A stretch of DNA of 49,887 nt from a bacterium (GCA_021844025.1 JAKBUF010000003.1:1-49887); one strand, 5' to 3'; numbered from the stretch's first letter, positions 24,941 to 40,439 are shown. The notes: generated by a model not told the origin, from the sequence alone. Translations and numbers: made by a program.

Positions 24941-25075
24941 TATGCCCAGTAACTTTACTTTATACGCCGTAGGCGAAAAGACCTGTGCTGGAAATAACAG
25001 AAAGAAATAAAACGTAGTTTTGCATACATATTCATAAAAAGTATAATTTAAATAAAGTAACGTTAACTGGGTATG
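24941..25075 (+). mobile_element. start-codon-associated MITE-like/structured element, copy 1 (serS)
   Basis: TATG-CCCAGTAACTTTACTTTA...TAAAGTAACGTTAACTGGG-TATG; the right ATG is the serS start; homologous to 32397-32529 and 40307-40439. Confidence 0.75.
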
Positions 25076-26305
25076 ATCGATATTGATCTCATTCGAAAAC
25101 AGCCGGAAAAAGTAGCCGAAGGATTACGTAAACGAGGAAAAGACACCTCGCTGCTTGAATCATTTAAAAAACTTGATGATACTTGGCGGGAGCTAATAAA
25201 AAAAAGTGACGAGATTCGTGCTCAACAAAAAAAGGCTGCCCAAGATCGTGATCAGGAGAAGGGGAGAGAACTTAAAGAACAACTCAAGAAACTCGAAGAA
25301 AATGTAACTGAGCTTGAGCGTGAGAGATATATTCTTTTATTAGAGTTTCCCAATATTCCATTTGATGATGTGTTAGTTGGTCCCGACGAATCTCATAATA
25401 AGCAAATCCGATTTTGGAAAGAAAAACCGGAGTTTGATTTTCCTATAAAGGATCATATGGAATTAGGAGAGGCACTTGGTATTATTGATACCCAAAAGGC
25501 GGCGCATGTCGCGGGTTCTCGATTTTATTATTTAAAAGGAAAGGGAGCGTTGTTAGAGTTAGCTTTGGTTCAATACGCATTTGAAACACTTACTAAAGAG
25601 GGGTTTGAGGCCATTATTCCTCCGGTAATGATTCGTCCTGATACGTATGAGCGTATGGGGCGCCTTACTGATTCGCAGAAAGAAGAGCGCTATTATTTGC
25701 CTAAAGATGATTTATATTTAGTGGGAAGTGCCGAACATACTTTGGGGCCATTGCATATGGATGAAACGTTTATGCTCGATCAATTGCCAAAAGAATATGT
25801 TGGTTTTTCCACTTGTTTTCGTCGGGAGGCAGGAACCTACGGGAAAGACACCAAGGGAATTTTGCGAGTGCATCAATTTGATAAAGTTGAAATGTACGCA
25901 TTTTGTACCCCAGAAAAGTCTGAAGATGAACATAAAAAACTGCTTTCCATGCAAGAGAAGTTGTTTCAGGGACTAGAAATTCCATATGAAGTGGTTGAGA
26001 TTTGTACGGGGGATATGGGTCCTACCGATGCACGGCAGTTTGATGTTAATGCATGGATCCCCAGTCAACAAACATATCGGGAAGTTGCATCGTGTTCTAA
26101 TACCACCGACTACCAGACAAGGGGAATTAATACGAAAGTAAAAACTGTTGATGGTAAAACTCAATTTGCCCACGCGCTGAACGCAACCGCTCTTGCGATG
26201 AGTCGTACTATTATTGCTATTTTAGAAAATTACCAACAAAAAGATGGTTCGGTAATAATACCCCAGGTGTTACAGAAATATACAGGATTCAATTCTATTG
26301 TATAA
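25073..26305 (+). CDS. serS: serine--tRNA ligase
   Basis: MIDIDLIR, GSRFYY, CFRREAG, RVHQFDKVE, EVASCSN, ILENYQ. Confidence 0.98.
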   Translation: MIDIDLIRKQPEKVAEGLRKRGKDTSLLESFKKLDDTWRELIKKSDEIRAQQKKAAQDRDQEKGRELKEQLKKLEENVTELERERYILLLEFPNIPFDDVLVGPDESHNKQIRFWKEKPEFDFPIKDHMELGEALGIIDTQKAAHVAGSRFYYLKGKGALLELALVQYAFETLTKEGFEAIIPPVMIRPDTYERMGRLTDSQKEERYYLPKDDLYLVGSAEHTLGPLHMDETFMLDQLPKEYVGFSTCFRREAGTYGKDTKGILRVHQFDKVEMYAFCTPEKSEDEHKKLLSMQEKLFQGLEIPYEVVEICTGDMGPTDARQFDVNAWIPSQQTYREVASCSNTTDYQTRGINTKVKTVDGKTQFAHALNATALAMSRTIIAILENYQQKDGSVIIPQVLQKYTGFNSIV

Positions 26306-26376
26306 AGTATTAAGTATTAGGGATTGCATGCCTCTTTCCCGTACTACTTACTACTTATTCCTTACTACTTATATTT
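26299..26376 (+). repeat. heptamer-periodic inverted repeat (GTATTAA/TACTACT family) joining the serS stop to the next start
   Basis: GTATAAAGTATTAAGTATTAGGGA pairs with TCCCGTACTACTTACTACTTATTCCTTACTACTTAT. Confidence 0.65.
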
Positions 26377-27159
26377 ATGCGCGATTATCTCCAAGAAAAA
26401 CGAGAAGAAAACAGAAGAAAGAAAGGCAAAAAGTTACGTGTTATTATAGGAATTGTTTTGGTCATCATTTTAATATCTGGTGTTATTTGGCTACTTCGGG
26501 GTTCGTGGTACACTGTGCAATCCGTATCCGTTGAACAGTTAGATAGTGTTTTGTCGCAAGAGGTAGCATCTACCACCGACTCATATATTCACTCTCGTTC
26601 GTTTCTTGCGAGTATTTTTCTCAATGCAAATAGTTTTTTGGGTTTTGGGGGTAACTCTCTTGAGCAAGAAATTTCCCGCACCTATCCAGTACTTACCGAT
26701 ATTACTGTTTCAAAAAATTATTTTACTCGAGTTATAACTATACAAGCGCGTGAACGTGCTAAAACAGCGCTGTGGTGTGATTCTCAAAATTCTTGTTGGT
26801 GGTTTGATGATGATGGTGTTGTATTCCTTGAAGCTCCCGTTACCCAGGGGCAGCTTCTTAAAAAGGTTATTTCGTCTTCAAATACACCTATTACTATTGG
26901 TCAGCATATTCCTTTAGATAGTTCTGTTCTTAATTCTATTTTTTCATTTCTAGACGCGATACACGCTCCGGGAAAAAGTTTGTTGTGGAACCCCGCACTT
27001 GAAGAAATAACCACTGAAGCGCGTAAAGGTTTTCCAACTATTTACTTTAGCACCAGACAAGATCCTTCATACGCGCTTCCTTCCATTGAAAAAATTTCAA
27101 ATCTTCAAAATATTTCTTACATCGATTTGCGGGTTACTAATAGAATATATTATAGGTAA
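26377..27159 (+). CDS. FtsQ/DivIB-like cell division protein
   Basis: Basic N-terminus, one TM segment, POTRA-like region (ITIQARER), DDDGVVF and a C-terminal YIDLR. Confidence 0.7.
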   Translation: MRDYLQEKREENRRKKGKKLRVIIGIVLVIILISGVIWLLRGSWYTVQSVSVEQLDSVLSQEVASTTDSYIHSRSFLASIFLNANSFLGFGGNSLEQEISRTYPVLTDITVSKNYFTRVITIQARERAKTALWCDSQNSCWWFDDDGVVFLEAPVTQGQLLKKVISSSNTPITIGQHIPLDSSVLNSIFSFLDAIHAPGKSLLWNPALEEITTEARKGFPTIYFSTRQDPSYALPSIEKISNLQNISYIDLRVTNRIYYR

Positions 27160-27260
27160 TTTTCAGTTATCAGTTATCAATTTTCATTAAATTTTTTAAT
27201 GTTTCAATTATTTAATTGAAAATTCATTGATAGTTGGAAATTGGTAATTGAACATTATTG
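27160..27260 (+). repeat. AT-rich inverted repeat (CAATTTT/AAAATTG family) related to the rnpB insertion
   Basis: CAGTTATCAGTTATCAATTTTCATTAAATTTTTTAAT...GAAAATTCATTGATAGTTGGAAATTGGTAATTGAA. Confidence 0.7.
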
Positions 27261-27267
27261 ATTTTAT

Positions 27268-27615
27268 ATGCTTCCATCTTTTCATCTTTCTCAATATCTT
27301 TGGACAACTCATGCAAAAGTAAAAATGTCTTACTATAGACTTTCTGAAAGTAGGGTAAAACGGGTGTTGCGTAATCCGGTCCGGACCGAGGAGGGAATTG
27401 CTCCCAAAACGTTTGCGTGTATGCAGCCGGCGTCTACGAAAACCAAAGACGGCAAGAAAATGTGGAGTCAAGAACTATGGGTCATGGCGCAACATACAAA
27501 GAAGGGAGATATTAAAATTATTTCTGCGTGGCGATACCCAGGAATGTCAAAAATTCGCGCTCCGTTACCTGTGGAGGTACAGATGGAAATAGAAGAAGGA
27601 ATGAGTGAGTTATAA
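27268..27615 (+). CDS. hypothetical protein (DUF4258/RelE-like fold possible)
   Basis: WTTHAKVKM..RVKRVLRNP..ELWVM..IKIISAWRYPG. Confidence 0.7.
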   Translation: MLPSFHLSQYLWTTHAKVKMSYYRLSESRVKRVLRNPVRTEEGIAPKTFACMQPASTKTKDGKKMWSQELWVMAQHTKKGDIKIISAWRYPGMSKIRAPLPVEVQMEIEEGMSEL

Positions 27616-27822
27616 AGTTAAAAGTTGAAAGTTATAAAGATGCTACAAAATATGCACTCTTCTCCAGTAGTAGAACACTTCACTGTTTCAGTAGGAGATT
27701 AAGCTCTCTACGTGATGTGGTGAGGCGCGCTTTTAAATCTTGATATTTTTTGATATTCTACATTGGTGTGGTTATCCTTGTTTTCTTTTTACTTTAAAAC
27801 TTGATAACTTTAAAACTGATAT

Positions 27823-29103
27823 ATGGAATTTTTATCATTACTGTCAAAAAACGACCCGGAAACGCTACATAAAACGCTCTATGAGCGGTTTTTAGCTGAT
27901 TGGAAGGGAATTACCCCCCATGAACTATTGGAGCTCTTACATGTCAAAATAGAACAAGCGCTTACTTTTGATGAACTGGCCGATAGGTTGAATAAGAAAA
28001 AGAAAATAAGTGTGAAACTGGGAATTGACCCGACTGGCCCCGATGTGCATTTGGGGCACCTGGTTCCCATTATGTTACTGCGGCAATTTCAAAAAGCAGG
28101 ACATGTGGTGAATTTAATTATTGGAGATTTTACTGCTATGATCGGAGACCCAAGTGGTAGAAATACTCAGCGAGAAGCATTAACTTCTGCGCAAGTCGCA
28201 GCAAACAAAAAAACATATCTTAAACAAATTGGGCCGTATTTAGATGTAAAGACAGCACGTATCCATCATAATTCTAAATGGCTTTCTAAGTTGACTGCCA
28301 AAAGAATTCTTGCCGACTTACAAATGATTCCCGCAAGTAGTGTCTTACAGCGAGAAGATTTTAGAACTCGTTTGGAGACAGGGGACCCTCTTTCTATGGC
28401 GGAACTCTTATATAGTTATTTACAGGGAACTGATTCGGTTGAACTGGTATGTGATATTGAGGTTGGGGGGCGTGACCAATTTTTAAATCTAGCCCTCGGA
28501 AGAGACCTTATGCGCGTTAAAGGAATGGAACCGCAAATAAATCTTACCACGCCGGTGTTGGAAGGAACTGACGGAAGTGGTAAAAAAATGAGTAAGAGCT
28601 ATGGGAATTATATTGCGCTTACTATGAGCGCAGAAGATATATTTGGTAAAACAATGTCTATACCCGATACGTTGATTACCCCGTATTTTAAGGCGTTTGC
28701 GGACATTAGAAAAACCGAGATTTCGTATTTAGAAGAATTGATCCGTCAAAATCCTTTGGAAATGAAAAAACAGTTGGCTCAGTTTATGGTGGCTATTGCA
28801 ACTAAAAAATTGAAAGAGGCACTTGTACAACGCGAGGCATTTGAGAAGAAATTCAGTAAAAAAGAATTTGATGTTGATCTACCAACACTTGTCGTTGCTC
28901 AGGGTACTGTTTTATTTGAAGCGCTTAAACAAGAGAAGGGAGTTACCAAAGCGAGTAATACAGAATTATTTCGTTTGTTTGAGAGCGGGGCGGTGCGTGT
29001 GGTAGATCCTATTGAGAGAGCACTGAGTGTAAAAGACTCATTAGATGCGCCATGTGTAATTCGAGTCGGAAAGAAATTGTTTCTAAAAATTGAGATAGAG
29101 TAG
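27823..29103 (+). CDS. tyrS: tyrosine--tRNA ligase
   Basis: KLGIDPTGPDVHLGH, IGDFTAMIGDPSGR, GGRDQFLN, KMSKSYGN, C-terminal RVGKK. Confidence 0.96.
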   Translation: MEFLSLLSKNDPETLHKTLYERFLADWKGITPHELLELLHVKIEQALTFDELADRLNKKKKISVKLGIDPTGPDVHLGHLVPIMLLRQFQKAGHVVNLIIGDFTAMIGDPSGRNTQREALTSAQVAANKKTYLKQIGPYLDVKTARIHHNSKWLSKLTAKRILADLQMIPASSVLQREDFRTRLETGDPLSMAELLYSYLQGTDSVELVCDIEVGGRDQFLNLALGRDLMRVKGMEPQINLTTPVLEGTDGSGKKMSKSYGNYIALTMSAEDIFGKTMSIPDTLITPYFKAFADIRKTEISYLEELIRQNPLEMKKQLAQFMVAIATKKLKEALVQREAFEKKFSKKEFDVDLPTLVVAQGTVLFEALKQEKGVTKASNTELFRLFESGAVRVVDPIERALSVKDSLDAPCVIRVGKKLFLKIEIE

Positions 29104-29130
29104 GTATAATGCGAATGTCGCGAATATCAT

Positions 29131-29703
29131 ATGCAAATGACGCGAAAATTAGGAGGAACTAAGTTCATTTTACACGGAGGATTTAACCCAGGCGAAGGTT
29201 CAGAAAATGATGCATTCTTTCAGGAGATACTTAAATCCGTTCCACAAAAGGTGGATATTTTACTTGTTTATTTTGCTAAAGAAGAAAACCGGGTTGATAT
29301 TAATAGAAAGGAAGACGTAGAACAATTTGAAAAGAATAAGGGAAACAAAATATTATCTTTTCAGACAGCCAACGAGGAAATATTTAGGAACCAAATGAAG
29401 AAAGCAGACATTGTTTATTTACATGGAGGACTGTCCACCAAGTTGCTGTCTGTCTTAGAAAAGTTTACAGATTTAGACGAAATGTTTAAGGGGAAAATAG
29501 TAGCGGGTGACTCTGCTGGGGCGAATGTTTTATGCAAATCTTTTTATAGTGAGATATCAAAGGGTGTATTTAATGGACTCGGGATCCTTCCTCTGAATAT
29601 AGTTTGCCATTATACACCAACTCATTTAGGCACGATTAGTAGGAATTTGGATTCTGATGTGTTATATTTGCCAAGCTATGAATATAAGGTTTATTGGAAA
29701 TAG
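29131..29703 (+). CDS. peptidase E / S51 (type 1 glutamine amidotransferase-like) protein
   Basis: LHGG, ADIVYLHGG, AGDSAGA nucleophile motif, GLGILP..VCHY. Confidence 0.8.
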   Translation: MQMTRKLGGTKFILHGGFNPGEGSENDAFFQEILKSVPQKVDILLVYFAKEENRVDINRKEDVEQFEKNKGNKILSFQTANEEIFRNQMKKADIVYLHGGLSTKLLSVLEKFTDLDEMFKGKIVAGDSAGANVLCKSFYSEISKGVFNGLGILPLNIVCHYTPTHLGTISRNLDSDVLYLPSYEYKVYWK

Positions 29704-29766
29704 TTAAAATTTTCTTTATAATTCTTCCTTAATACATAATACATATCCCTTAATACTATTCTATTT

Positions 29767-30774
29767 ATGAAACTCAGTATTGGAATTGTTGGATTGCCGA
29801 ATGTCGGCAAGAGTACTCTTTTTAAAGCGCTTACACATAACGAAGTGCATATTGCTAATTACCCATTTGCTACTATTGATCCGAATGTGGGAGTGGTAGA
29901 GGTTCCCGACGAACGCTTGCAAAAACTCACCCAACTTAGCGCTTCTAAAAAAACAATACCTGCCATTGTTGAATTTTATGATATTGCGGGCTTGGTAAAG
30001 GGAGCGAGCCAAGGACAGGGTTTAGGAAACCAATTTCTCTCACATATTCGTGAGGTGCAAGCAATCGCGCATGTTGTTCGTTGTTTTACAAATAGCGACA
30101 TTATTCATGTGGAGCAAGAAATTGATCCAAATAGAGATTTGCACATTATTCATAATGAGCTGATTTTTAAGGACCTGGAAACGGTACAGAAGAGAATTAT
30201 AAAAGCAGAGGGAGAAGCTCGTACCGGAGATAAGCAAAAGATTGCCGATTTAGCATTTCTCAAAAAGATAGAGGAAATGCTTCTTAACGAAAAATTAGTT
30301 TCAAATTTGGATCGTGAAACGTTGGATTACCCTCTTCTTAAAGAATTAGCTCTTCTTACTTCAAAACCGCAACTGTATGTGTTGAATGGAAATGCAGCAG
30401 ATGTTCCGCAGTCTTTAATAGATGAAATCGCGGCAGAAAAAAACATGTATGTAGTGCTTGATCTCGCTCAGTTAACCGATCTAGCGCCCTTAATTTTAAA
30501 AGCATATGAACTGCTAGGGCTTATTAGTTTTTTTACTACCGGAGAAGATGAAACGCGAGCCTGGACCATTACCAGGGGAGAGAAAGCGCCTCAGGCGGCT
30601 GGAGTTATTCATACCGATTTTGAGAAAAAATTTATTCGTGCTGAAGTGGTTGCGTATAATGATTTTATTTCTTGTGGCGGATGGAGCCAAGCAAAGCAAA
30701 AAGGAAAACTTAGACTAGAAGGAAAAGAATATATTATTCAAGATGGCGATATTATAGAAGTGAGACATGGGTAG
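29767..30774 (+). CDS. ychF: redox-regulated ATPase YchF
   Basis: [49 protein letters not shown]. Confidence 0.98.
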
Positions 30775-30831
30775 TTAAGTATTATGGGGAGGGTATTAAG
30801 TATTTAGGAGTTTATAAGAACGCAGAAATAG

Positions 30832-30863
30832 AAAAGGGTTGCTACATCAGTAGCAACCCTTTT
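30832..30863. terminator. bidirectional intrinsic terminator
   Basis: AAAAGGGTTGCTAC-ATCA-GTAGCAACCCTTTT. Confidence 0.85.
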
Positions 30864-30865
30864 GG

Positions 30866-31681
30866 TTATGCTTCAATACTTAAACCTACTTCGGCTTGAG
30901 GATTTTCGCAGTATCCAAGACAATTCTCAGATATTGGTTTAAATATCTTGAAAGAACATTTTTTGAATCCGGAAAATGCTTTTTCCATTGGAACTTTTAC
31001 AAATGGTCCCAATTTCAATTGCAGCTGTTCTTCTGTAATATCTGCTTTGAGAAATTGCATAATAAGTTCTTCAATTTCTTTTTCGTGAACCCCAACTAGT
31101 TCCTCAAATCCATTTACAACGAGTGATTCGAAGTAATAGTATTGTCTCAAGATCATGCTCTCATAAATTTCTTGAGCATATTCTTTAATTTGATCTTCCT
31201 CTCCCTTAAAATCGATTATGACCTCTACCGGAACTATGCACTGCATAGTTTTATAACTTCCGTGTAAATTTACCTTGACGCCATATCCAAGATGTTTGCC
31301 ATGAATGTTTTCTCTCTCGTTGTTTCCTTTTAAACTCATAATCTCATAAACAACATCTCCTTTTTCTTTAAGATATGCATGTCCTATAAATTTAATTTCA
31401 TTTGATGCAGAAACAACGAATAAAGTTCTTTTTCCCCTGTCTTCTTCTGAGATATATTCGAGTCGTTTTGATCGAAAGATTGAAATTGGTAGTAATAAAC
31501 CAAAGGTGACAAGAGAAATTGTGAGAAGTTCGGGGTTAATGGATATTTGTGGTGGGTCGATCAGAGACATGAGGGAAGTAAACAACCAAAAAACAATGAA
31601 AATTAATGCTATTGTAAATGGAATATAGACTGGCCAACGAAGAAAAAAGGCTATGGTTTTACAATCTTTTTTTAAGTTCAT
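30866..31681 (-). CDS. hypothetical protein with two N-terminal TM segments
   Basis: 271-aa ORF with AGGAG SD and its own TTGACA promoter (~31746-31774, minus strand). Confidence 0.7.
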   Translation of the reverse strand: MNLKKDCKTIAFFLRWPVYIPFTIALIFIVFWLFTSLMSLIDPPQISINPELLTISLVTFGLLLPISIFRSKRLEYISEEDRGKRTLFVVSASNEIKFIGHAYLKEKGDVVYEIMSLKGNNERENIHGKHLGYGVKVNLHGSYKTMQCIVPVEVIIDFKGEEDQIKEYAQEIYESMILRQYYYFESLVVNGFEELVGVHEKEIEELIMQFLKADITEEQLQLKLGPFVKVPMEKAFSGFKKCSFKIFKPISENCLGYCENPQAEVGLSIEA

Positions 31682-31803
31682 TTTATCTCCTAAACGTTTT
31701 TGAGGTTTCGGTTATCGGTTAGTTAAGTTGTACAGATCTTCATAGATGATATAATTTAATTCACTATTTGTCAATATATCCTGTATGCACAAGAGGATAC
31801 TTA

Positions 31804-31829
31804 AAAAAGTGGCACGCACGTGCCACTTT
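31804..31829 (-). terminator. intrinsic terminator
   Basis: AAAAAAGTGGCACG-CA-CGTGCCACTTT hairpin downstream of 31844-32194. Confidence 0.7.
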
Positions 31830-31843
31830 GTCCTATACCTACT

Positions 31844-32194
31844 CTATGTTTCTTTTTTTCTGGCGAGATACTCCACAATTATCTTTCTCCATTCGGTAGG
31901 GTTTTTGTTGGGGGTAATAACGGAATCAATATAGCCCCACTCACTTTCTCCCAATCTTTTCCCGAATTCGTAGGGAATGGTGATTTGGGACACGTTCCCA
32001 TAAACATCCTTTTTAATATCCATTATTGGATTCCATGTGCTCTTGTAAAGAACCATTGATCCAATCGAAATCGTTTTTAGCTCTGTGACAATCTTATCCT
32101 TCTGCGGTGGTTTTTTTACTGTAGATGGAATTAGTAATAATATCCCAATAAGAATTATTGGGATGAGAACGAGTACCATTTTTCTTGCTTTCAT
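31844..32194 (-). CDS. hypothetical secreted/membrane-anchored protein
   Basis: N-terminal signal/TM segment, GAGGAG SD. Confidence 0.7.
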   Translation of the reverse strand: MKARKMVLVLIPIILIGILLLIPSTVKKPPQKDKIVTELKTISIGSMVLYKSTWNPIMDIKKDVYGNVSQITIPYEFGKRLGESEWGYIDSVITPNKNPTEWRKIIVEYLARKKET

Positions 32195-32311
32195 TTCTCT
32201 CCTCTCTAGTTATTGGTGGTATGAAATTTCTGATGTTAGTATGGCATATTATAATACTGGCGTCAATTCTTAATCTATGCACAAAATCTCATTATTCTGC
32301 TATACTGTAAC

Positions 32312-32396
32312 AGTTATCAAGTTCAAAGTTGTAAAGTTATAAAGGAATTAATTTTCCACTTGATAGCCTTATAACTTGATAACTTTATAACTCATT
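32312..32396 (+). repeat. heptamer-periodic inverted repeat (AAGTTAT/ATAACTT family)
   Basis: AGTTATCAAGTTCAAAGTTGTAAAGTTATAAAG pairs with CTTGATAGCCTTATAACTTGATAACTTTATAACT. Confidence 0.7.
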
Positions 32397-32529
32397 CATG
32401 CCCAGTAACATTACTTTATACGCCAAAGGCGAAAGGAATATATACTGGGGGGATAGAAAAAAGTAGAATATATTTTGTATAATTACTATAGAGAACATAA
32501 TTTAAATAAAGTAATGTTAACTGGGTATG
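32397..32529 (+). mobile_element. start-codon-associated MITE-like/structured element, copy 2
   Basis: CATG-CCCAGTAACATTACTTTAT...ATAAAGTAATGTTAACTGGG-TATG; the right ATG starts ORF 32527. Confidence 0.75.
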
Positions 32530-32925
32530 GATCCTATTAATTACGAAGAGCTTGCAAAAGAAGTTATAAAACAGCAACAGAAAAGTCCGGAACAAATACC
32601 CCAAAGCCACAAAGAGGCGGTGGTCTCTATTTTAAAAGAAAAAATGTCTGCGCAACAACCCGTTGTTCCTCAGCCCACATATCAACAACCAAAACCTTTA
32701 CAACCAAATATTGTCTCTACTGACCCCGATTTACCAACCTATGCCGCAAGTGCTCCGGAGGAATCAAAACAAGAAGTAAGAAATCTTATTGAATTCACTC
32801 TTTCTAAGGGCCTTTCCCAAGGGATTGCTCAAGCGGCAAAATCTGATCCGTTTGTGATTGATATGTATCACGATGCGCTTGCTGAGCATATTGTAACGCA
32901 AATGAAAGAAAAGGGAATGATTTAA
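32527..32925 (+). CDS. hypothetical protein
   Basis: 132 aa, Q/P-rich N-terminus, C-terminal KGLSQGI..DPFVIDMYHDAL; lies just upstream of the ATPase gene. Confidence 0.8.
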   Translation: MDPINYEELAKEVIKQQQKSPEQIPQSHKEAVVSILKEKMSAQQPVVPQPTYQQPKPLQPNIVSTDPDLPTYAASAPEESKQEVRNLIEFTLSKGLSQGIAQAAKSDPFVIDMYHDALAEHIVTQMKEKGMI

Positions 32926-32974
32926 AGAATTTTTTATCTTGTAATCTTGAACTTAATAACTTTATAACTCATTC

Positions 32975-35332
32975 ATGTCTTCTCCTTTATTTATTGGTGG
33001 ATTAGTAATATTAATATGCGGGCTTACCGCGCTTATTTTTTGGGCCATTAAGCGGAATCGTAATGAGCGACTACGTAAATCTCTTGCCACTAAATTACTT
33101 TTGATTCGAATTCCTCATGCTCCTTCCGATAAACCGTCTTCTTACAAAGAGGAAATCAATCTTACTGAACAATTATTTAGTATTCTTGCGGGGAATAAAG
33201 AGGGGACCGTTCTTGAAATAGCGGTACACCATGTAGGAGAAGAAATTCATTTTTATGTAGCAATTCATGAATCACTCGTTTCTTTTGTGAGTCGTCAGGT
33301 TGAGGGTATTTTTAAAGATGCGCGTGTTGAAGAAGTTGCTGAATATAACGTGTTTCAACCAAATGGATTCAGTAAGGGAGCGTATCTTTCTTACACGGAA
33401 AATTTTGCTCTTCCTATTCGTTCCTATGTTGAATCTGAAGGAGATACCTTTTCTCCTATTATTAGTGCATTTTCTAAAATACAAGAATTGGGAGAGGGAG
33501 CTGGTATGCAGGTATGTATTCGTCCCGCCGACTCTTCGTATAAAAAGAATGTAAAAACACTTATAGAGAATTTAAAAAAGGGAGCTTCTTTTAAAGAGCT
33601 TGCTTCACAGAATCTGTTTGACCTTAAAGATATGCGTCATGTATTTTCGTCGGCTCCTGAAAATAAAGAAGACGAAAAAAGACCCGTTGATGAATCCACT
33701 ATACAAGCGCTTGAAAAGAAGATTTCAAAACCTTTAGTAGAAGTGAATGTACGTTTTGTGGTATCTGCGGTGCAACAAGCGAATGCCGACGCTATTTTTG
33801 AGGGAATTTGCGGATCATTCTCTCAATTTGAGGCTCCCTTACGAAATAGATTTACTATTGTGGTTTCTAAAAATATTAAAAAATTTGCATATCAGTTTGT
33901 ATTTCGTGAATTTGACGATCGTCAACGTTTAATCATGAATATTGAAGAATTGGCTAGTATTTTTCATTTACCTACTAGCACTACACTTTCCCCCAAAATT
34001 AAGTGGTTAAAATCAAAAGAAGCACCTGCTCCCGCTAATCTTCCTACGGAAGGCACTAAACTAGGAGAAAGTTCATTCCAGGGGGTTGCAAAACCGGTAT
34101 ATATTACCGATGAAGATCGCCGAAGACATTTATATATTGTTGGGCAGACCGGAACGGGAAAATCCGCTTTATTAACCAATATGGCAGCTGATGATATTCG
34201 TCAAGGAAAGGGTGTGTGTGTTGTTGATCCTCACGGAGAGCTTGTTGATAGTATATTGGGCTGTATTCCTCGTGAGCGTGCGAACGACGTTATTATTTTT
34301 GACCCGGGGAATATTAATCGCCCGATTGGATTGAATATGTTGGAATTTGATCCTTCACGTCCGGAAGAAAAAACATTTATTGTAAATGAAATTCAGAGTG
34401 TCTTTAACCGATTGTTCAGCGCGGAGACCATGGGTCCTATGTTTGAACAATATATGCGTAACGCACTATTGCTTTTAATGGAAGATTCAATTAATGAGCC
34501 CGCTACGCTTATTGAGGTTCCGCGTATTTTTACCGATGATGAATTTCGTAAACGCAAACTAGCGCGCATTACTAATCCAGTTGTACTTGATTTTTGGCAG
34601 AAGGAGGCAGCTAAGGTTACGGGAGAAGCGTCGTTAAACAGCATGGCTCCTTACATTACCTCAAAGTTTAACAATTTTATTGCCAACGATTATGTGCGTC
34701 CTATTATTGGGCAAGTAAAATCATCTTTTAGATTTCGCCAAATTATGGATGATCGGAAAATTCTGTTAGTGAGTTTGTCTAAGGGAAGAATAGGCGATAT
34801 TAACTCGGGACTTTTGGGAATGCTTATTGTTGGCAAATTATTATTGGCTGCGTTTTCTCGTATTGATATTCCGCAGGAGCAGCGCGCTGATTTTAATTTA
34901 TACATTGATGAGTTTCAGAATTTTACCACTGATTCTATCGCGGTTATTCTTTCTGAGGCGCGTAAGTATCGGTTGAATCTTACTATTGCGCATCAATTTA
35001 TTGCGCAGCTTGAGGAAAAAATTCGTGATGCGGTGTTTGGAAACGTGGGCTCCATGCTTGCGTTTCGAGTTGGGGCAGGGGACACAGAGTTTCTTATTAA
35101 ACAATTTGAACCCGTTTTTTCTCAAAATGACCTTATGAATATTGATAATTTTAATGCGTATATTCGGATGCTTATTAAGGGGCAGACCTCAAAACCGTTT
35201 AATATAAAGACGCCTTTTTATCCCAAACAGGAGCATGAACTCGTACAACAGTTAAAAATGTTTTCTTCGGCAAATTATGGGGCCGATAGACAGGTAGTTG
35301 AAACAGATATCTTACATAGGCTTCGCTCATAG
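32975..35332 (+). CDS. VirD4/TraD/HerA-like membrane-anchored ATPase (DUF87-type)
   Basis: N-terminal TM segment, RRHLYIVGQTGTGKS (Walker A), VDPHG, LYIDEFQNF (Walker B), SEARKY, AHQFIAQL. Confidence 0.88.
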   Translation: MSSPLFIGGLVILICGLTALIFWAIKRNRNERLRKSLATKLLLIRIPHAPSDKPSSYKEEINLTEQLFSILAGNKEGTVLEIAVHHVGEEIHFYVAIHESLVSFVSRQVEGIFKDARVEEVAEYNVFQPNGFSKGAYLSYTENFALPIRSYVESEGDTFSPIISAFSKIQELGEGAGMQVCIRPADSSYKKNVKTLIENLKKGASFKELASQNLFDLKDMRHVFSSAPENKEDEKRPVDESTIQALEKKISKPLVEVNVRFVVSAVQQANADAIFEGICGSFSQFEAPLRNRFTIVVSKNIKKFAYQFVFREFDDRQRLIMNIEELASIFHLPTSTTLSPKIKWLKSKEAPAPANLPTEGTKLGESSFQGVAKPVYITDEDRRRHLYIVGQTGTGKSALLTNMAADDIRQGKGVCVVDPHGELVDSILGCIPRERANDVIIFDPGNINRPIGLNMLEFDPSRPEEKTFIVNEIQSVFNRLFSAETMGPMFEQYMRNALLLLMEDSINEPATLIEVPRIFTDDEFRKRKLARITNPVVLDFWQKEAAKVTGEASLNSMAPYITSKFNNFIANDYVRPIIGQVKSSFRFRQIMDDRKILLVSLSKGRIGDINSGLLGMLIVGKLLLAAFSRIDIPQEQRADFNLYIDEFQNFTTDSIAVILSEARKYRLNLTIAHQFIAQLEEKIRDAVFGNVGSMLAFRVGAGDTEFLIKQFEPVFSQNDLMNIDNFNAYIRMLIKGQTSKPFNIKTPFYPKQEHELVQQLKMFSSANYGADRQVVETDILHRLRS

Positions 35333-35427
35333 TCTATAGGTTCTGGTTATCTTCCTGCCCCTTTACCTACACGGGCAAGGGGGCTCTGTGCGTGGAAATA
35401 TGCCCATTTTTTTGATATACTGTTTAT

Positions 35428-36897
35428 ATGGTTGGAAAACAGGATATTCGGGTACGTATAGCCCCTTCGCCTACCGGACACCTTCACTTAGGCACTGTTC
35501 GTACGGCTTTATATAACTATCTTTTTGCCCAAAAAGAGCACGGAACGTTTATATTGCGAGTAGAAGACACCGATCAAGGGCGCTCGTTACCTATTTATGA
35601 AAATGAAATTCTAGATGGTTTACGGGCTCTAGGTCTTACTTGGCAAGAGGGCCCCGATGTGGGCGGCCCCTATGGTCCCTATAGGCAAACTGAACGAACC
35701 CAAATATATAAAACGTACATAGAAAAACTTCTTACCGAAAGAAAGGCGTATTATTGTTTTTGTACAAAAGAAGATCTAGAAAAGCAACGTGAAGCTATGC
35801 TCGTGGAAGGTATTGCTCCTAAATATGCTGGGACGTGTCGCTCACTCTCCGCACAGCAGGTGCAGGAAAAGCTCGCGGCGGGTGCCTCTTCAGTTATCCG
35901 TTTATTAGTATCTGATGGGGTAGAGGTTTCATTTGATGATGTTATTCGTGGCTCTATCTCAGTTATGAGTAATACCATTGGAGATATGGTAATTGCTAAG
36001 AATGTGAACACCCCATTGTTTCATCTAGCAAATGTTGTTGATGATTATGAAATGAAAATTTCACATGTGATTCGGGGAGAAGATCATATATCCAATACTC
36101 CTAAACAAATTTTAATTCAGCAGGCACTTGGGTTTCCTCGTGTACGATACGCGCATATTCCGCTTGTTCTTACCCCCGATCGTAAAAAAATGTCTAAGCG
36201 AAGTTTGGAAACATCATTTGTTGAATATTTACACGACGGATATCTTCCCGAGGCTCTCCTTAATTTTTTGGCGTTATTAGGATGGGCTCCCGAAGATGGG
36301 AGTGAACTGCTCACGTTACCAGAAATGGTTGAGCGTTTTTCTTTAAAGCGTATTCAAAAATCGGGCGCCGCTTTTAATATTGATAAACTTGATTGGTTTA
36401 ATGCGCAGTATATTAAAAAACTTTCTTTTGCGGAATTAGTACAACGACTTACTCCCTTTGTTCCGCCCGAATGGCTTTTGCAAAATAACCATCTTATGGA
36501 ACATGCAATTAACCTTGAGCGAGAACGCATAAAAAAACTCTCTGATTTTGTAGAGGGGGCTGGATTTCTGTTTTCACTAGGGGAGTATGAAACTTCTTTA
36601 TTAGTATGGAAAGGGTCTACTTTAGCTCAAGCTTCAGCACATCTTGCCAAAATTAGAGAATTGTTAGATAGTATAGAACCTTCAAATTTTACCGCAACAT
36701 ATCTTGAGTCGGTTATTATGCCGTATGCTCAGCAAGTCGGTCGGGGAGAGGTATTGTGGCCATTACGGGTTGCTCTTTCTGGTAAACAGAATTCTCCGGG
36801 TCCTTTTGATATTTTGGCTGCTTTAGGCAAAGAAGAATCTTTACGTCGTATTGATATTGGGGTTGCTAAAGTGGCCGGTGAACTGTCGTTATCATAA
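35428..36897 (+). CDS. gltX: glutamate--tRNA ligase
   Basis: RIAPSPTGHLHLG, LRVEDTD, HVIRGEDH, KMSKR, WPLRVALSG. Confidence 0.98.
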   Translation: MVGKQDIRVRIAPSPTGHLHLGTVRTALYNYLFAQKEHGTFILRVEDTDQGRSLPIYENEILDGLRALGLTWQEGPDVGGPYGPYRQTERTQIYKTYIEKLLTERKAYYCFCTKEDLEKQREAMLVEGIAPKYAGTCRSLSAQQVQEKLAAGASSVIRLLVSDGVEVSFDDVIRGSISVMSNTIGDMVIAKNVNTPLFHLANVVDDYEMKISHVIRGEDHISNTPKQILIQQALGFPRVRYAHIPLVLTPDRKKMSKRSLETSFVEYLHDGYLPEALLNFLALLGWAPEDGSELLTLPEMVERFSLKRIQKSGAAFNIDKLDWFNAQYIKKLSFAELVQRLTPFVPPEWLLQNNHLMEHAINLERERIKKLSDFVEGAGFLFSLGEYETSLLVWKGSTLAQASAHLAKIRELLDSIEPSNFTATYLESVIMPYAQQVGRGEVLWPLRVALSGKQNSPGPFDILAALGKEESLRRIDIGVAKVAGELSLS

Positions 36898-36910
36898 ATA
36901 GCTTTTTATC

Positions 36911-38221
36911 ATGGGGTTTCATTTTTTTTGGCATTATATAGGGACCGTAAAGTTGTTTATAGGCATTGTCGTGCTATTAATTGCAAGCGTATTCATTTCT
37001 CAAGTGGTTCATGCGGCAACTACTTCGGCTGTTTCTTCCAGTAAGGCAGACCCCGCGGCTGTACAAGCGCAGATTGATCAGCGCAATAAAGAATTGGCCG
37101 ACATTCAAAAACAAATAATAGAGAATCAGCAAAAGTTATCAGAAACACAACAACAAAAGCAAACCGTTTCATCTGAACTAAATAATCTAAACACCACTAT
37201 TCGGCAGGTTGATTTGGGTATTTCGGCAAGTCAAATTTCTTTACAAAAATTAGGATTGGAAATAGGCAATTTGCAAGATGATTTAGCAAGCGCCCAAGAT
37301 GATTTTTCTCAAAAACAAGCTGCTATGGCGGCTGTTTTTCAAAATATTCAGGTAAAAGATCAGGAAAATCCTTTATTGGCATTTGTGGGGTCAAAAAGCT
37401 TATCTGATGGGCTGCAATCTGTGCAAAATTTAGTGAGCTTAAATCAAACACTTGCCCTAAAAGCGCTTGAGTTACAGGAGTCGTATCGAGTTATGCAAAA
37501 CACACTTACGAGCGCGCAAAAGAAAAAAAGTGATAAAGAATTGGAGACCGAAAACCTGAAAAACAGAAAAATAATTGTTGCAGAATTAAAAGATGATAAA
37601 ACAAAACTTCTACAAGAAACCAAGAAAAAAGAAAGCGCATACCAACAATCATTAGATGACCTTGCTAAGCGCCAAGCAGAAATTGCTGCCGAAATTGATT
37701 CTATGGAATCTTCTTTGCGTGGCAAGATAGATTATAAGGAAATACCTAAGGCCGGTGTTGGAATTCTTATGACTCCGGTTGAAAATCCGGTGGTAACACA
37801 GGAGCATGGGTATACGCAGTCGGCTAGAAAACTATATCGGGGCAAGTATCATAACGGACTTGATTTTGGAGCTCCTATTGGTACCCCCATATTTGCGGCG
37901 TATGATGGGAAGGTTGTTTCGGTGGCGAATCAAGATTTATATTGTCGTCGTGGTGCCTATGGTAAATATATAGCTATACAACATCCTATTAATCTTACTA
38001 CGTTATATGGGCACCTCTCTTTGCAATTAGTTCATGAAGGGGATAGCGTTAAGCGGGGTCAATTAATTGGGTACTCAGGTAACACCGGATATGCTACCGG
38101 TCCTCATTTGCATTTTGGGGTGTATGACTCTTCAACATTTTATATTGGTCCTAGTAAGTCATGTGGTCCCAAAATGCCTTTTGGAGGAGATTTAAATCCT
38201 CGTGACTATTTGTCATTGTAG
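36911..38221 (+). CDS. M23 family peptidoglycan endopeptidase with coiled-coil (EnvC/MepM-like)
   Basis: Signal peptide, long coiled coil, HNGLDFG, YGHLS, GNTGYATGPHLHF. Confidence 0.92.
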   Translation: MGFHFFWHYIGTVKLFIGIVVLLIASVFISQVVHAATTSAVSSSKADPAAVQAQIDQRNKELADIQKQIIENQQKLSETQQQKQTVSSELNNLNTTIRQVDLGISASQISLQKLGLEIGNLQDDLASAQDDFSQKQAAMAAVFQNIQVKDQENPLLAFVGSKSLSDGLQSVQNLVSLNQTLALKALELQESYRVMQNTLTSAQKKKSDKELETENLKNRKIIVAELKDDKTKLLQETKKKESAYQQSLDDLAKRQAEIAAEIDSMESSLRGKIDYKEIPKAGVGILMTPVENPVVTQEHGYTQSARKLYRGKYHNGLDFGAPIGTPIFAAYDGKVVSVANQDLYCRRGAYGKYIAIQHPINLTTLYGHLSLQLVHEGDSVKRGQLIGYSGNTGYATGPHLHFGVYDSSTFYIGPSKSCGPKMPFGGDLNPRDYLSL

Positions 38222-38246
38222 TTATATTAAAGTATAATTTATACAA

Positions 38247-38525
38247 ATGGATAAAATTATTTTAAACGCGCTCCAGCCGGTTATAGCGTTTCTTCAAAAA
38301 CAAGGTCTTTGGGATGGCCTCGTGAGCACCTGGGATAAACTTTCTTCATTAACCGGGTCTTTAGTTGGTGGTTCGGGATTAGGATCGTTATTTGGAGGAT
38401 CCGGAGGATCTGGGAACTCGTCTTCTTTTATTGTTAGTTTCTTTAAATTAGTGGTTGCTATACTAGTAACCATTGTTAATGTTTTAATAGATATCGTTAA
38501 TTGGGCACTTGGGTTATTTAAGTAG
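38247..38525 (+). CDS. small Gly/Ser-rich membrane-associated protein
   Basis: 92-aa ORF with an amphipathic/hydrophobic C-terminus. Confidence 0.65.
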   Translation: MDKIILNALQPVIAFLQKQGLWDGLVSTWDKLSSLTGSLVGGSGLGSLFGGSGGSGNSSSFIVSFFKLVVAILVTIVNVLIDIVNWALGLFK

Positions 38526-38642
38526 TTGATAGGGGTTGTTTTAATTAAAGTATAATATATATGTCGCAAAATGTATATTGTGCGACATATAGTATACAAA
38601 ACAAAGAGGGTGAAATCATCACCCCCTTTTACTGCAAACTCT

Positions 38643-39092
38643 CTACGTTTTCTCATCCCAGATGTGTTTCATTAACCATAGGTCAAATCTTTTTCCAAAT
38701 GCCATCAGGACAAAATAAGTACCGAGTGCGGAGGCATATATTATTCTTGTCGTCCAATTGTATACGGTTAGATGTAGAATAAGTAATGCGCCCGAAATGA
38801 CAAGTAATGGAAATTTTACAAAGATCCATCCTGTTTGATATGGGGTGAGTTCCCTCGGACTTTTAAGGTAGCCGGACCACTTTAATATCGGTTTCGCTAT
38901 GCCCGGCTTTAGTAAGACCAATGGAATAAAACCAAGTAATATACCTAGAGTTATACAATGCCCCAGTAATCCTGGGAATGTTAGTTGTGAAATTATCTCT
39001 ACCACCGCTAATCCCCCAACAAGTATTGTCCCTACTATTATCGTAAGAATCAGATTCCTTATAGAATCTTTTAAAACAAGTACTGGTTCCAT
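38643..39092 (-). CDS. hypothetical membrane protein (4 TM)
   Basis: Hydrophobic ORF with AGGGG SD and a terminator-like hairpin at ~38603-38630. Confidence 0.7.
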   Translation of the reverse strand: MEPVLVLKDSIRNLILTIIVGTILVGGLAVVEIISQLTFPGLLGHCITLGILLGFIPLVLLKPGIAKPILKWSGYLKSPRELTPYQTGWIFVKFPLLVISGALLILHLTVYNWTTRIIYASALGTYFVLMAFGKRFDLWLMKHIWDEKT

Positions 39093-39264
39093 TTTGGATC
39101 CCCTTTGTTTGTTATAAAATCAGTTAAAAGTTCTGTGTAGAGTCTACTATATTATTCATAATTTGTCAATATTTATTGTTTTTTGTACTTGGGGTATATT
39201 TCATGTATTGGAAATTAATCGTTTCAATTTAGAACTTAAAATTTGGAATTTAAAACTTTTTCCC

Positions 39265-40038
39265 ATGTCTCCTTTTGAATCTTTTGCTCAGTTTCGCGAA
39301 CAAGGCGGATACGATATTAATGGCACGTGGTATCCTCGGGTAACCAAAATTGTTGAAATAAAATCAAAACCGGCGCTCTATAAATTTTATGGTGAGTTAA
39401 AAAGTTTTGATGAGGGTGAGCGTATTAAACAACAGTCCGCGAGCGAAGGGACACTAATTCATGAAACAATTGAGGCGCTTTTAATGAAGCAATCCCCTGT
39501 TATTCCTCCTTCCATACGTCCGGCCGTTGAGGCCTTTGAACGTTTTATAGAAGATAAACACATCCAGGTTGATCCGGCGTTCGTTGAATATCGGTTGGTA
39601 AATCATAAAGAGCGCTATGCGGGTACTATGGACGCTATGGCGAGCATTAATGGAGTGTGGGGCGTGTTAGATATCAAAACTTCACAATCAGTGTATCGGG
39701 ATTATGGTCTGCAAACTTCCGCGTATATGGCGGCATTGGAACCAGATTTTCCTTTGCTTGCTACTCGTTGGATTCTTCGTATAGATCAACACCAAAAATG
39801 CGCAAAATGTGGTGCTTTGCTCCGTTCAAAAGGTGGGCGTGATAAGGTAAAACTCCCCTGGCAACGAGAACTAAAAGCGCACGCACTTTCGTGTCAGCAT
39901 GAGTGGGATGGGCTTGTGGGAGATATTGAGCTAAAAGAATTTCCTAATTGGCAGCATGACTATGAGGCGTTTTTGGGTGCTAAGAAGCTGTGGGAGTGGG
40001 AGCATGAAGATAAATTAAAACAGATCGGGTATCTATAA
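39265..40038 (+). CDS. PD-(D/E)XK nuclease superfamily protein
   Basis: YPRVTKIV, GTLIHETIE, VEYRL..YAGTMD..VLDIKTS..LQTSAY; ATG at 39265. Confidence 0.82.
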   Translation: MSPFESFAQFREQGGYDINGTWYPRVTKIVEIKSKPALYKFYGELKSFDEGERIKQQSASEGTLIHETIEALLMKQSPVIPPSIRPAVEAFERFIEDKHIQVDPAFVEYRLVNHKERYAGTMDAMASINGVWGVLDIKTSQSVYRDYGLQTSAYMAALEPDFPLLATRWILRIDQHQKCAKCGALLRSKGGRDKVKLPWQRELKAHALSCQHEWDGLVGDIELKEFPNWQHDYEAFLGAKKLWEWEHEDKLKQIGYL

Positions 40039-40085
40039 GGAGAGTTTCTAGTTCTCAGTTTTGAGTTCTAAATTAATCTTAAAAA

Positions 40086-40253
40086 TTATTCAGCGGCTCT
40101 TTGCTGGATGATTATGGGTGCCTGTTCGTAGTCTCGAGCAACTAGATATCCTGTCGCAAATGCAATTGCGAGAGCTAAAAATGCCAATATTCCTAGAATA
40201 ATACTGGTTTTATTTTTCTTAACCCTTTCTTTTATGTTTCTAATCAAATACAT
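40086..40253 (-). CDS. small single-TM protein (55 aa, not in ORF track)
   Basis: Manual translation MYLIRNIKERVKKNKTSIILGILAFLALAIAFATGYLVARDYEQAPIIIQQRAAE. Confidence 0.6.
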   Translation of the reverse strand: MYLIRNIKERVKKNKTSIILGILAFLALAIAFATGYLVARDYEQAPIIIQQRAAE

Positions 40254-40283
40254 TTGACAGTTAGCTATTTTTTATAGTATACT
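40254..40283 (+). promoter_or_regulatory. sigma70 promoter upstream of element copy 3/rpmA
   Basis: TTGACA-18 bp-TATACT. Confidence 0.65.
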
Positions 40284-40306
40284 CTTTTTTACTGGAGATT
40301 AAAGCA

Positions 40307-40439
40307 TATGCCCAGTAACTTTACTTCACACGCCGTAGGCGAAAATGAAGTATTGTAAAGTGGGCAAAAAAACAAAGCTATTACAATAACAAACAGATTG
40401 TAGGAGCTAATTACAAGTAAAGTAAAGTTACTGGGTATG
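40307..40439 (+). mobile_element. start-codon-associated MITE-like/structured element, copy 3 (rpmA)
   Basis: TATG-CCCAGTAACTTTACTT...AAGTAAAGTTACTGGG-TATG with perfect 16-bp TIRs; the right ATG is the rpmA start. Confidence 0.8.

Follow-up and report, generated by a model that had tools for sequence, protein, structure and literature searches.

The described elements closest to the one reported here are small repeats that lie next to bacterial genes. Correia elements (CREE) of Neisseria and ERIC sequences share several of its features: they are non-coding and about 100–160 bp long, have inverted repeats and a short target duplication, are dispersed, and are co-transcribed as long hairpins. 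Correia elements duplicate TA and carry a conserved Correia repeat sequence. Promoters formed at CREE ends have been reported, as has binding of IHF and of RNase III, the latter with cleavage or protection (PMC2649163). The REP2 repeats of Neisseria and similar repeats of Borrelia lie directly upstream of genes, with their ATG fused to the open reading frame (ORF); REP2 carries its own promoter, ribosome-binding site, and ATG, with no terminal inverted repeats or target duplication described (PMC3184786). Rickettsia palindromic elements (RPE) are small mobile palindromes tolerated in the genes of reduced genomes, where selection passes only harmless insertions (PMC10969869). Here, we describe an element found three times in a bacterial contig of 49,887 nt (GCA_021844025.1 JAKBUF010000003.1:1-49887; hereafter, the window), each time fused to a start codon, namely those of serS, a 132-aa ORF, and rpmA. 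The window is contig C5 of assembly G000 (528 kb, 25 contigs, 90% complete). On the best reading of the data, the elements form an orphan superfamily of miniature transposable elements with inverted repeats (MITEs) in Parcubacteria-type Patescibacteria.

The element works somewhat like Correia and ERIC sequences and sits like REP2, but it belongs to neither family. Correia elements occur at varied distances from genes and in both orientations, whereas at least half of the present copies lie exactly on a start codon, in one orientation. The target duplication is 4 bp long and in many cases contains no TA (TTTG, CTTG, CAGG), CCCRGTA forms the ends, and promoter-like motifs are not enriched in the sense orientation. 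In contrast to REP2, the ATG comes from the duplicated target, as relatives have this ATG without the element, and the native leader stays upstream. RPE are inserted in frame and translated, whereas the present elements are stop-rich and precede the ORF, except in three pilin cases. The PATE elements derived from IS200/IS605 insert 3' of a fixed tetra- or pentanucleotide and produce no target duplication; here, the same variable 4-mer is found on both sides.

The three window copies share the architecture (T/C)ATG-CCCAGTAAC(T/A)TTACTT ... AAGTAA(N)GTT(A)ACTGGG-T-ATG, followed by the gene. The left and right start codons are referred to as ATG1 and ATG2. The initial annotation had reported three copies in the same sense orientation with ATG1-to-ATG2 spacings of 131, 129, and 129 nt (copies 1, 2, and 3, respectively), and all of this was confirmed in the sequence (Table 1). 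About 125 nt lie between ATG1 and the (T)ATG, and the terminal inverted repeats comprise 19–22 bp; the layout of copy 1 is TATG(24941-24944)-CCCAGTAACTTTACTT...AACTGGG-TATG(25072-25075). In all three ORFs, ATG2 is the first possible in-frame start. The repeats fold into a terminal stem (P1) of about 20 bp that takes in both ATG1 and ATG2, with energies of -31.7, -36.9, and -42.4 kcal/mol and z-scores of -3.7, -5.8, and -6.9 for copies 1, 2, and 3, respectively. Since the arms are inverted repeats, the opposite strands fold nearly as well. The small subterminal hairpin P2 is kept in 9/9 full-length copies of the G000 genome, with compensatory changes in the mreB copy. A 16-mer of the end motif occurs five times in the window, as against 1.13 expected.

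The surroundings of ATG1 look native. For rpmA, a promoter and a GGAG had been noted ahead of the element; the promoter-like sequence, read from the sequence, is conserved in relatives, and the GGAG lies downstream of it, 10 nt before ATG1. The rpmA transcript should therefore carry the whole element. The motif AACTTTATAACTCATTC-ATG of copy 2 recurs before the start at 32975, as had been stated correctly. In the same region, a 20-nt leader, AACTTTATAACTCATTCATG, with ATAACTT-like direct repeats precedes two neighboring genes (window positions 32357-32400 and 32945-32977).

Table 1. Positions of the element copies, their parts, and associated genes in the window and elsewhere in G000.
Feature	Sequence	Position	Strand	Remarks
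Copy 1, ATG1 to ATG2, before serS	window	24942..25075	+	covariance model E=2e-21
Copy 1, 5' terminal inverted repeat (P1 5' arm), CCCAGTAACTTTACTTTAT	window	24945..24963	+	
Copy 1, P2 hairpin, CGCC-GTA-GGCG	window	24965..24975	+	
Copy 1, 3' terminal inverted repeat (P1 3' arm)	window	25052..25071	+	
serS, 410 aa, starts at ATG2	window	25073..26305	+	Pfam SerS; single copy in assembly
Copy 2, ATG1 to ATG2	window	32398..32529	+	covariance model E=1.8e-18
Copy 2, left flank CATG and right flank TATG	window	32397-32400 and 32526-32529		
Copy 2, arms	window	32401-32419 and 32506-32525		
Copy 2, P2 hairpin	window	32421-32431		
132-aa ORF, starts at ATG2	window	32527..32925	+	no Pfam family
rpmA promoter-like sequence, TTGACA-17-TATACT (native)	window	40253..40281	+	read from sequence, conserved in relatives; putative function
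Copy 3, ATG1 to ATG2	window	40308..40439	+	covariance model E=1.9e-20
Copy 3, flanks TATG and TATG	window	40307-40310 and 40436-40439		
Copy 3, arms	window	40311-40329 and 40417-40435		
Copy 3, P2 hairpin	window	40331-40341		
rpmA, ribosomal protein L27, 92 aa, starts at ATG2	window	40437..40715	+	Pfam L27; single copy
Ninth full-length copy, at TTTG in the last rpsG codons	G000:C20	10152-10286		L028:1501-1635
Short variant	C20	9066-9131		L028:415-480
Short variant	C2	44152-44236		L035:1504-1588
Short variant	C2	40248-40323		L032:2344-2419
IS30-like transposase ORF (single), 327 aa	G000:C22	12675-13658		L132:955-1938; rve domain

The corresponding sites in related genomes are empty. The serS gene has a single ATG and no element in five relatives, and the same holds for rpmA in four. 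The promoter-like TG(T/A)TATTCTAT of serS lies at a similar distance from the ATG of the relatives as from ATG1 in G000, and the N-termini of L27 agree with those of the relatives. The mreB gene is element-free in two genomes of the same genus (G002 and G003). In G000 and G001, it carries elements of different subfamilies with different duplication registers (TATG vs ATGA), so that the same start codon must have been hit by independent insertions. The rpsL promoter (TTGACT-17-TATAGT) is intact and element-free in G001–G003, and the 3' end of the S7 gene is likewise empty. The duplicated 4-mer is identical on both sides of a copy and varies from copy to copy (TATG, ATGA, CATG, AATG, TTGA, TTTA, TTTG, CTTG, CCTA, CAGG, AGGG, AAAG), with occasional duplications of 5 bp (CGATG, TAATG). 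On this comparative evidence, the element is a mobile insertion with a 4-bp target duplication. The initial annotation had proposed that the element is mobile but non-autonomous, has terminal inverted repeats, and duplicates 4 bp; it suggested looking for single-ATG sites at serS and rpmA, and the empty orthologous sites support the proposal. Its reading of the flanking TATG holds as a 4-bp target duplication, but the duplicated 4-mer is not always TATG.

Tandem or adjacent elements that share one TATG or lie head to tail were also seen (L075:1501-1784; L196; L113-L115), and repeat insertion at a duplicated target appears to occur. In the rpmA leaders of G001, G002, and G003 (L042-L044), there is a small hairpin, e.g., tcccaattgaaatctggga, without a counterpart in G000; it could be a leader regulator of L27 or L21. 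The element is present in metagenome contigs from four runs of four studies: X3 has contigs spanning copies 1 and 3, X2 copies 2 and 3, X9 copy 2, and X12 copy 3. None of the contig joints listed for these runs skips exactly one element, and thus no empty-site allele was found among them; as rare variants are lost from contigs, fixation does not follow from this. Loose contig ends at 24941 and 24945 (X2, X3, X9) look like other copies with other flanks. Further joints lead from about 27639 to 32369/32371 and have other sequence in between, so this segment may be repeated or variable.

When the copies were used to build a profile and a covariance model, a search of the G000 genome with these models yielded nine full-length copies (covariance model E 3e-16 to 1e-21) and three short variants, 12 in all. 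The end pattern matched nine times on the forward and seven times on the reverse strand, and a reversed control pattern did not match. Eight of the nine full-length copies adjoin the ATG of an ORF. The targets are serS, the 132-aa ORF, rpmA, a 62-aa protein without a Pfam match that we take to be L28, MreB, RuvA, a 1201-aa class I aminoacyl-tRNA synthetase, and a DksA/TraR-like zinc-finger protein (a weak match, under the Pfam cut-off). The claim that the right-hand ATG is always the start of the gene thus stands for all three window copies and for these eight, but not for the whole family. Six named target genes and the 132-aa ORF are each present as a single copy (tblastn against the G000 assembly); mreB, which is split between contigs C4 and C2, was left out of this check.

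The consensus structure of the full-length copies consists of a 22-bp terminal stem and a 4-bp hairpin, with compensatory changes in 8/27 pairs (CCCCGT/ACGGGG, TCCAGT/ACTGGA, and CCCGGT/ACCGGG; TGCT/AGCA in P2). These changes fit pairing constraints, but arm position 4 is often mismatched elsewhere in the family, and we do not lean on them. The short variants (66–85 nt) lack the interior, and 3/3 adjoin TTGAC(A/T). Two of them adjoin the TTG(A) of consensus promoters, TTGACA-17-TATAGT (before rpsL) and TTGACT-17-TATAAT, and the remaining one adjoins TTGACT without a properly spaced -10 box. At the ninth full-length copy, the native TTTG-CCCGGTAATAT alongside matches the element's own 5' end at 11/11 bases. 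Because the element begins with almost the same sequence as natively follows the duplicated TTTG, S7 keeps its stop codon. The end-like sequence is conserved in three genomes of the same genus, and the rpsG copy may be an insertion next to an end-like sequence.

To quantify the association with start codons, we counted an element as lying at a start if an ATG 0–2 nt from its end began an ORF that either had 50 aa or more or continued past the edge of the locus; this is our own rule and not annotation. Two samples were compiled, both pattern-defined in that the conserved termini were required; the second represents one subfamily, and related genomes in the samples are not independent. Sample 1 comprises 75 unique elements from genomes of the order (the first-listed pattern matches and the earlier loci). 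Among these, 52 lie at a start codon, 5 are ATG-flanked with a short ORF, and 18 have no ATG flank. Sample 2 is independent and comprises 73 unique elements picked by a 19-mer of the arm alone from species-representative genomes. Here, 40 elements are at start codons, 3 are ATG-flanked but short, tandem, or rearranged, 9 show a TTGA duplication adjoining TTGAC(A/T/G), 2 lie at a pilin leader/mature junction, and 19 lie elsewhere, including mid-ORF positions. In G001, 11/11 copies are at start codons. Gene names without a cited Pfam match are putative and were read from the N-termini; on this basis, the G001 targets include L33, S10, GatA, two GspE-type ATPases, MreB, GroEL, and an aspartyl-/asparaginyl-tRNA-synthetase-like protein. 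Elements also precede genes within ribosomal-protein operons (L14, S17, L15). The initial annotation had proposed that the element targets, or survives only at, start codons. A strong association in one orientation, which includes single-copy essential genes, is indeed found, but 18/75 and 33/73 elements lie elsewhere.

This association has to be seen against the background frequency of TATG in G000. Among 506 crude starts of G000, 37 have GGAG within -20..-5 and 315 (62%) read TATG; the lineage is poor in Shine–Dalgarno (SD) sequences. Of the TATG sites in this genome, 3956 are coding, 861 are intergenic but not starts (both strands counted), and 310 are starts. In the 150 nt preceding genes, starts account for 281 TATG, compared with 211 further sense-strand TATG and 253 antisense CATA, which makes start codons the largest single class of non-coding TATG. 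Even relative to the most generous, sense-only expectation of 0.57, the concentration at starts was nevertheless significant for G000 (8/8, p=0.011), G001 (11/11, p=0.002), and the ATG-flanked elements of sample 2 (40/43, p=2e-7). Outside starts, the duplicated 4-mers are heterogeneous (AGGG, CAGG, CCTA, AAAG, TATT), with some in mid-ORF positions. The intrinsic sequence specificity therefore looks loose, which makes the concentration at starts more striking.

The counts for coding TATG bear on the idea that the element is transparent at the RNA level, either through precise RNA excision or because ribosomes jump from the first duplicated codon to the second. Matched take-off and landing codons that flank a hairpin are known from T4 gene 60 and the mitochondrial byps. 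In the present elements, identical codons are always found on both sides (trivially, through the duplication), the stable hairpin starts directly after the first codon, and some copies lie inside ORFs. Skipping would make ORF insertions harmless, yet none of the 3956 coding TATG sites in G000 has a copy, and the pilin cases described below are explained by an in-frame ATG of the element. We regard RNA-level transparency as very improbable.

A more serious alternative is active targeting, in which the transposition machinery recognizes translation-start or promoter regions via a DNA feature or a bound host factor, with only a small role for selection in the site bias. Copies acquired after the species diverged already occupy starts in 8/9 (G000) and 11/11 (G001) cases, which fits targeting at least equally well, and no copy is found in G000 at the 211 sense or 253 antisense non-start TATG sites upstream of genes. 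The mreB start was hit independently in G000 and G001, a third genome (L063) has an element at an MreB-like start, and in two genomes an element lies before a RuvA-like start; this repetition hints at hot spots. The short subfamily of G000, with TTGAC adjoining every copy, points in the same direction, and the 11-base match at rpsG suggests that the transposase may read a specific target sequence. On the other side stands the loose specificity seen in the heterogeneous 4-mers outside starts.

The orientation of the elements provides further evidence. In sample 2, where orientation was defined by the asymmetric arm, this arm was on the gene-upstream side in 38 elements vs 1 (p=1.5e-10). Start-codon element pairs with interior similarity had the same orientation relative to the gene in 18/18 cases, and the AATAC arm was upstream in 11/11 copies of G001. 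The sense strand had A>T in 42 elements and T>A in 11, with one tie. In contrast, the elements at -35 boxes were oriented 6:3 (Fisher p=0.017 vs 38:1), and those at other duplicated 4-mers showed no bias relative to the strand asymmetry of the 4-mer (8 T-rich vs 10 A-rich). Since orientation is unbiased outside transcribed positions, insertion itself looks unoriented, and we attribute the rule to selection on the transcript and not to the chemistry of insertion. A strict orientation that is confined to co-transcribed copies also argues against active targeting, as it points to selection after insertion.

The strand content offers a concrete reason for the orientation rule. The ORF from ATG1 ends within the element in 49/50 cases (43/50 if the elements are reversed). 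An internal ORF beginning with ATG, GTG, or TTG that runs through the 3' arm and across ATG2 was found in 17/39 elements vs 35/39 after reversal (p=3e-5). An A-rich sense strand, in which stops are common and starts rare, would thus favor the observed orientation. As such internal ORFs are rarer in the real orientation, the coupling of translation to ATG2 through them was rejected. A conserved leader peptide from ATG1 was also rejected: this ORF has 3–43 codons, and nothing but the element end determines the first of them (copies in the ATGA register encode MTQ-stop). An internal outward promoter failed as a general feature, with a mean best match of 8.32 in the sense and 8.42 in the antisense direction; the sense strand was better in 16 elements and the antisense strand in 25. 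Copy 1 holds TTTGCA-17-TATAAT internally, and one such match per region corresponds to the chance expectation.

Two other niches were recognized in addition to start codons. Of the TTGAC-adjoining elements, 5/9 had a -10 match of at least 5/6 located 16–18 nt downstream, as against 6.3% among 1373 TTGAC control sites (p=1e-4); genuine promoters are commoner at the element-adjoining sites than chance would predict. The other niche is found in pilin-like ORFs, where three independent insertions lie exactly at the leader/mature junction (L072:1501-1624, L152:266-391, and L164), with the duplications TTTA, TTTA, and CAGG, respectively. In these cases, the 3' arm reads in frame as ...VSTTG^F/Q, where ^ marks the junction (for example, ...VSTTG^FTLVELL); the element in L164 ends at the G^Q junction. 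The terminal GGG of the element replaces the Gly(-1) codon, and a new basic leader begins at an in-frame ATG located 54–84 nt within the element. In L072, the junction is also where the N_methyl motif begins (E=8e-7); the motif is weak in L152 (E=0.002, below the cut-off), and the search did not find it in the pilin-like ORF of L164. Read from the sequence, this looks like the replacement of a leader peptide by a MITE, i.e., the survival of rare insertions that rebuild a gene. Provided that the pilin-like genes are expressed, translation can also begin within the element. Different 4-mers (TTTA, CAGG) at the same functional position are more easily explained by selection among insertions than by targeting, which we consider a possible but less likely origin of the site bias.

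Elements of this type are patchily distributed. The pattern CCCRGTA-N95-125-TACYGGG matches 57/401 genomes sampled from the same order, where single matches are unreliable because the reversed control also matches some genomes one to three times. The multi-copy genomes had zero control matches (13 copies in G083, 11 in G001, 10 in G300, 9 in G276, 7 each in G072 and G400, and 6 in G328). The same-genus genomes G002 and G003 gave no match to the pattern. One 19-mer of the arm matched at least 120 stretches in species-representative genomes. Among the matches listed, almost all are titled Parcubacteria, Paceibacteria, Patescibacteria, or candidate phyla within (Jorgensen-, Nealson-, Azam-, Moran-, and Doudnabacteria), and the few others look like chance. 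The subfamilies share the termini CCCRGTA/TACYGGG and differ in the remaining arm and the interior. The elements are about 60–165 bp long, with imperfect inverted repeats of about 20 bp; complementarity holds for 992 of about 1190 arm positions. When local hairpins were compared, the 5' one was the more stable in 28 elements, the 3' one in 20, and neither in 6, and P2 was accordingly rejected as a universal RNA motif. A GC-rich palindrome of about 22 nt, cctgcctgccggcaggcaggg, is nested in the 5' arm of some elements (L027 and L029 of G048; G387:C47); it may be a second, even smaller mobile palindrome.

With these data, we could weigh the suggestion that the element is a host cis-regulatory RNA, that is, a leader or translational switch that co-regulates growth and translation genes and was spread by transposition. 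Many targets are related to translation (L27, L28-like, L33, S10, S17, L14, L15, IF2, serS, a class I aminoacyl-tRNA synthetase, and gatA), the stem and the P2 hairpin of G000 show compensatory changes, and the orientation at genes is strict. However, there is no conserved target set: G000 and G001 share only mreB, which was hit independently, and G002 and G003 have no copies. Neither the interior nor the position of P2 is conserved across subfamilies, no Rfam family was found, and the copies upstream of -35 boxes lie outside the mRNA. The translational switch considered in the initial annotation is unsupported in view of this patchy, species-specific distribution and the divergent interiors, and we judge a regulatory origin to be improbable, if less so than RNA-level transparency.

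The properties of the elements are those of MITEs: they are small and non-coding, the ORF from ATG1 is not conserved, the 19–22 bp inverted repeats are accompanied by a site-dependent duplication of 4 bp (rarely 5), and the dispersed copies have empty counterparts. The feature that is missing is a related autonomous insertion sequence (IS) with the same ends. The scan of species-representative genomes gave 83 arms, of which 73 have a partner arm within 170 nt and 3 at 171–400 nt (tandem or nested elements). The remaining seven are without a partner within the 4-kb span, five of them in non-Patescibacteria records (likely chance 19-mers) and two at locus ends. In five element-rich genomes, Pfam searches gave no match to PF01609 or to PF13701 (IS1380-type); PF13843 (piggyBac-type) was also without a match, but control genomes were silent too, which makes this result uninformative. 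PF00665 matched in 1/5 genomes, in an IS30-like ORF, and PF13358 in 1/5. The IS30-like ORF of G000 was rejected as a partner, as its own 21-bp inverted repeats are unrelated to the element ends. The initial annotation had seen no cognate transposase, and neither the arm scan nor the Pfam search revealed one; metagenome-assembled genomes often lose repeated IS copies, so the absence of an autonomous partner is not proven. Transposons of the IS1380/piggyBac type have ends of the form CC(C)...(G)GG and duplicate 4 bp (or 4–5 bp) of an A/T-rich target, a resemblance that we note only as a lead.

The element was not recognized in searches for known families either. Rfam 15 gave no match in the window at the gathering score, in line with the earlier view that this is not a described family; the only weak match was SNORA40 (18.5 bits vs a gathering score of 51 bits, E=0.49). 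Phage records contained no blastn match to copy 1, and the arm 19-mer of the common subfamily was absent from viral contigs. A single viral-contig match to the G000-type arm lacks a partner arm and looks like chance. No description of start-codon MITEs or of MITEs in the candidate phyla radiation (CPR) was found in the literature searched, whose coverage excludes subscription journals. A 2024 review of prokaryotic MITEs contains no occurrence of 'start codon', 'initiation codon', or 'Patescibacteria', and the main text of a 2024 MITE survey of 183,232 genomes none of 'Patescibacteria', 'CPR', or 'start codon', although the supplementary tables of the survey could list the family.

Taking mobility, target duplication, the bias in site and orientation, and the intact single-copy downstream genes as established by sequence comparison, we consider it probable that the elements are orphan MITEs whose target duplication rebuilds the ATG, and that the start bias results from a selective filter combined with retention. 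In most surviving copies, the duplicated 4-mer ((T)ATG or ATGA) includes the start codon; one ATG would stay with the native leader and the second would be rebuilt against the coding sequence. In very compact genomes, almost any other insertion would destroy something, whereas the geometry at a start leaves the gene whole, and copies would accumulate there. The same logic would apply elsewhere: a TTGA duplication rebuilds the -35 box, and the pilin junction receives a Gly(-1) codon and a new leader. Before genes, only the A-rich, stop-rich, and start-poor sense orientation would be tolerated; with its many stops, this strand closes the ORF from ATG1 before the element ends and lets few spurious ORFs cross ATG2. 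Retention could contribute as well, since copies wedged between essential sequences could be lost only by precise excision, and copies in neutral DNA could be erased by the deletion bias of small genomes. Selection would thus be the cause of the bias, and the loose 4-mer specificity, the orientation bias restricted to transcribed positions, the pilin and rpsG cases, and the rebuilt -35 boxes all argue for it.

The transcript would carry a terminal helix of 19–22 bp that sets ATG1 and ATG2 side by side. Three routes by which ribosomes may reach ATG2 can be envisaged, and we do not rank them. The helix may be looped out between the native leader and ATG2, which would amount to a discontinuous ribosome-binding site. 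Phage T4 genes 38 and 25 are precedents for a looped-out helix. Alternatively, RNase III, a homolog of which is present in G000, may cut the helix of about 20 bp and leave a short, unstructured leader. Finally, ribosomes that start at ATG1 may melt the base of the helix.

Several observations weigh against the favored explanation as a whole. A filter alone would require that truly neutral sites are very scarce or that insertions into them soon disappear, and the start-bound young insertions and the repeated mreB and RuvA-like targets described above would be expected from targeting. Among about 1190 arm positions, the mismatches comprise 34 G.U vs 52 A.C and 107 others; an excess of G.U as a mark of selection on RNA pairing in the sense strand was thus looked for and not seen. 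Several subfamilies keep fixed asymmetric mismatches in the arms, more like the distinct left and right ends of a transposon. A helix of about -30 kcal/mol from ATG1 to ATG2 would normally block initiation at both codons. The putative transposition chemistry (DDE type, staggered cut) is deduced from the duplication, and the start calls rest on the ORF rule given above.

These findings have several implications. MITEs are usually described as intergenic passengers, whereas at least half of the copies of this superfamily occupy a start codon in one orientation, in genomes of about 0.5–1 Mb and before genes for ribosomal proteins, aminoacyl-tRNA synthetases, GroEL, IF2, and MreB. The superfamily is a case of a mobile element that rebuilds functional signals via its target duplication, whether these are start codons, -35 boxes, or pilin leaders, and it provides a clean case for separating target choice from survivorship in the site bias of transposons. 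For annotation, gene callers may pick the wrong ATG or report spurious small ORFs at these sites. The copies also constitute a natural experiment on the start of translation in uncultured CPR bacteria with few SD sequences. Tentatively, and with considerable doubt, we raise the possibility that essential single-copy genes routinely start translation directly behind a hairpin of about 130 nt and about -30 to -45 kcal/mol that separates the native leader from the start codon. If this is true, a non-canonical initiation route would be commonly used in an SD-poor lineage, with a split ribosome-binding site, a hand-over of ribosomes from ATG1 to ATG2, or an obligatory processing by RNase III into mRNAs with short leaders as candidates, and a transposon family would have specialized to exploit it, perhaps by homing to starts.

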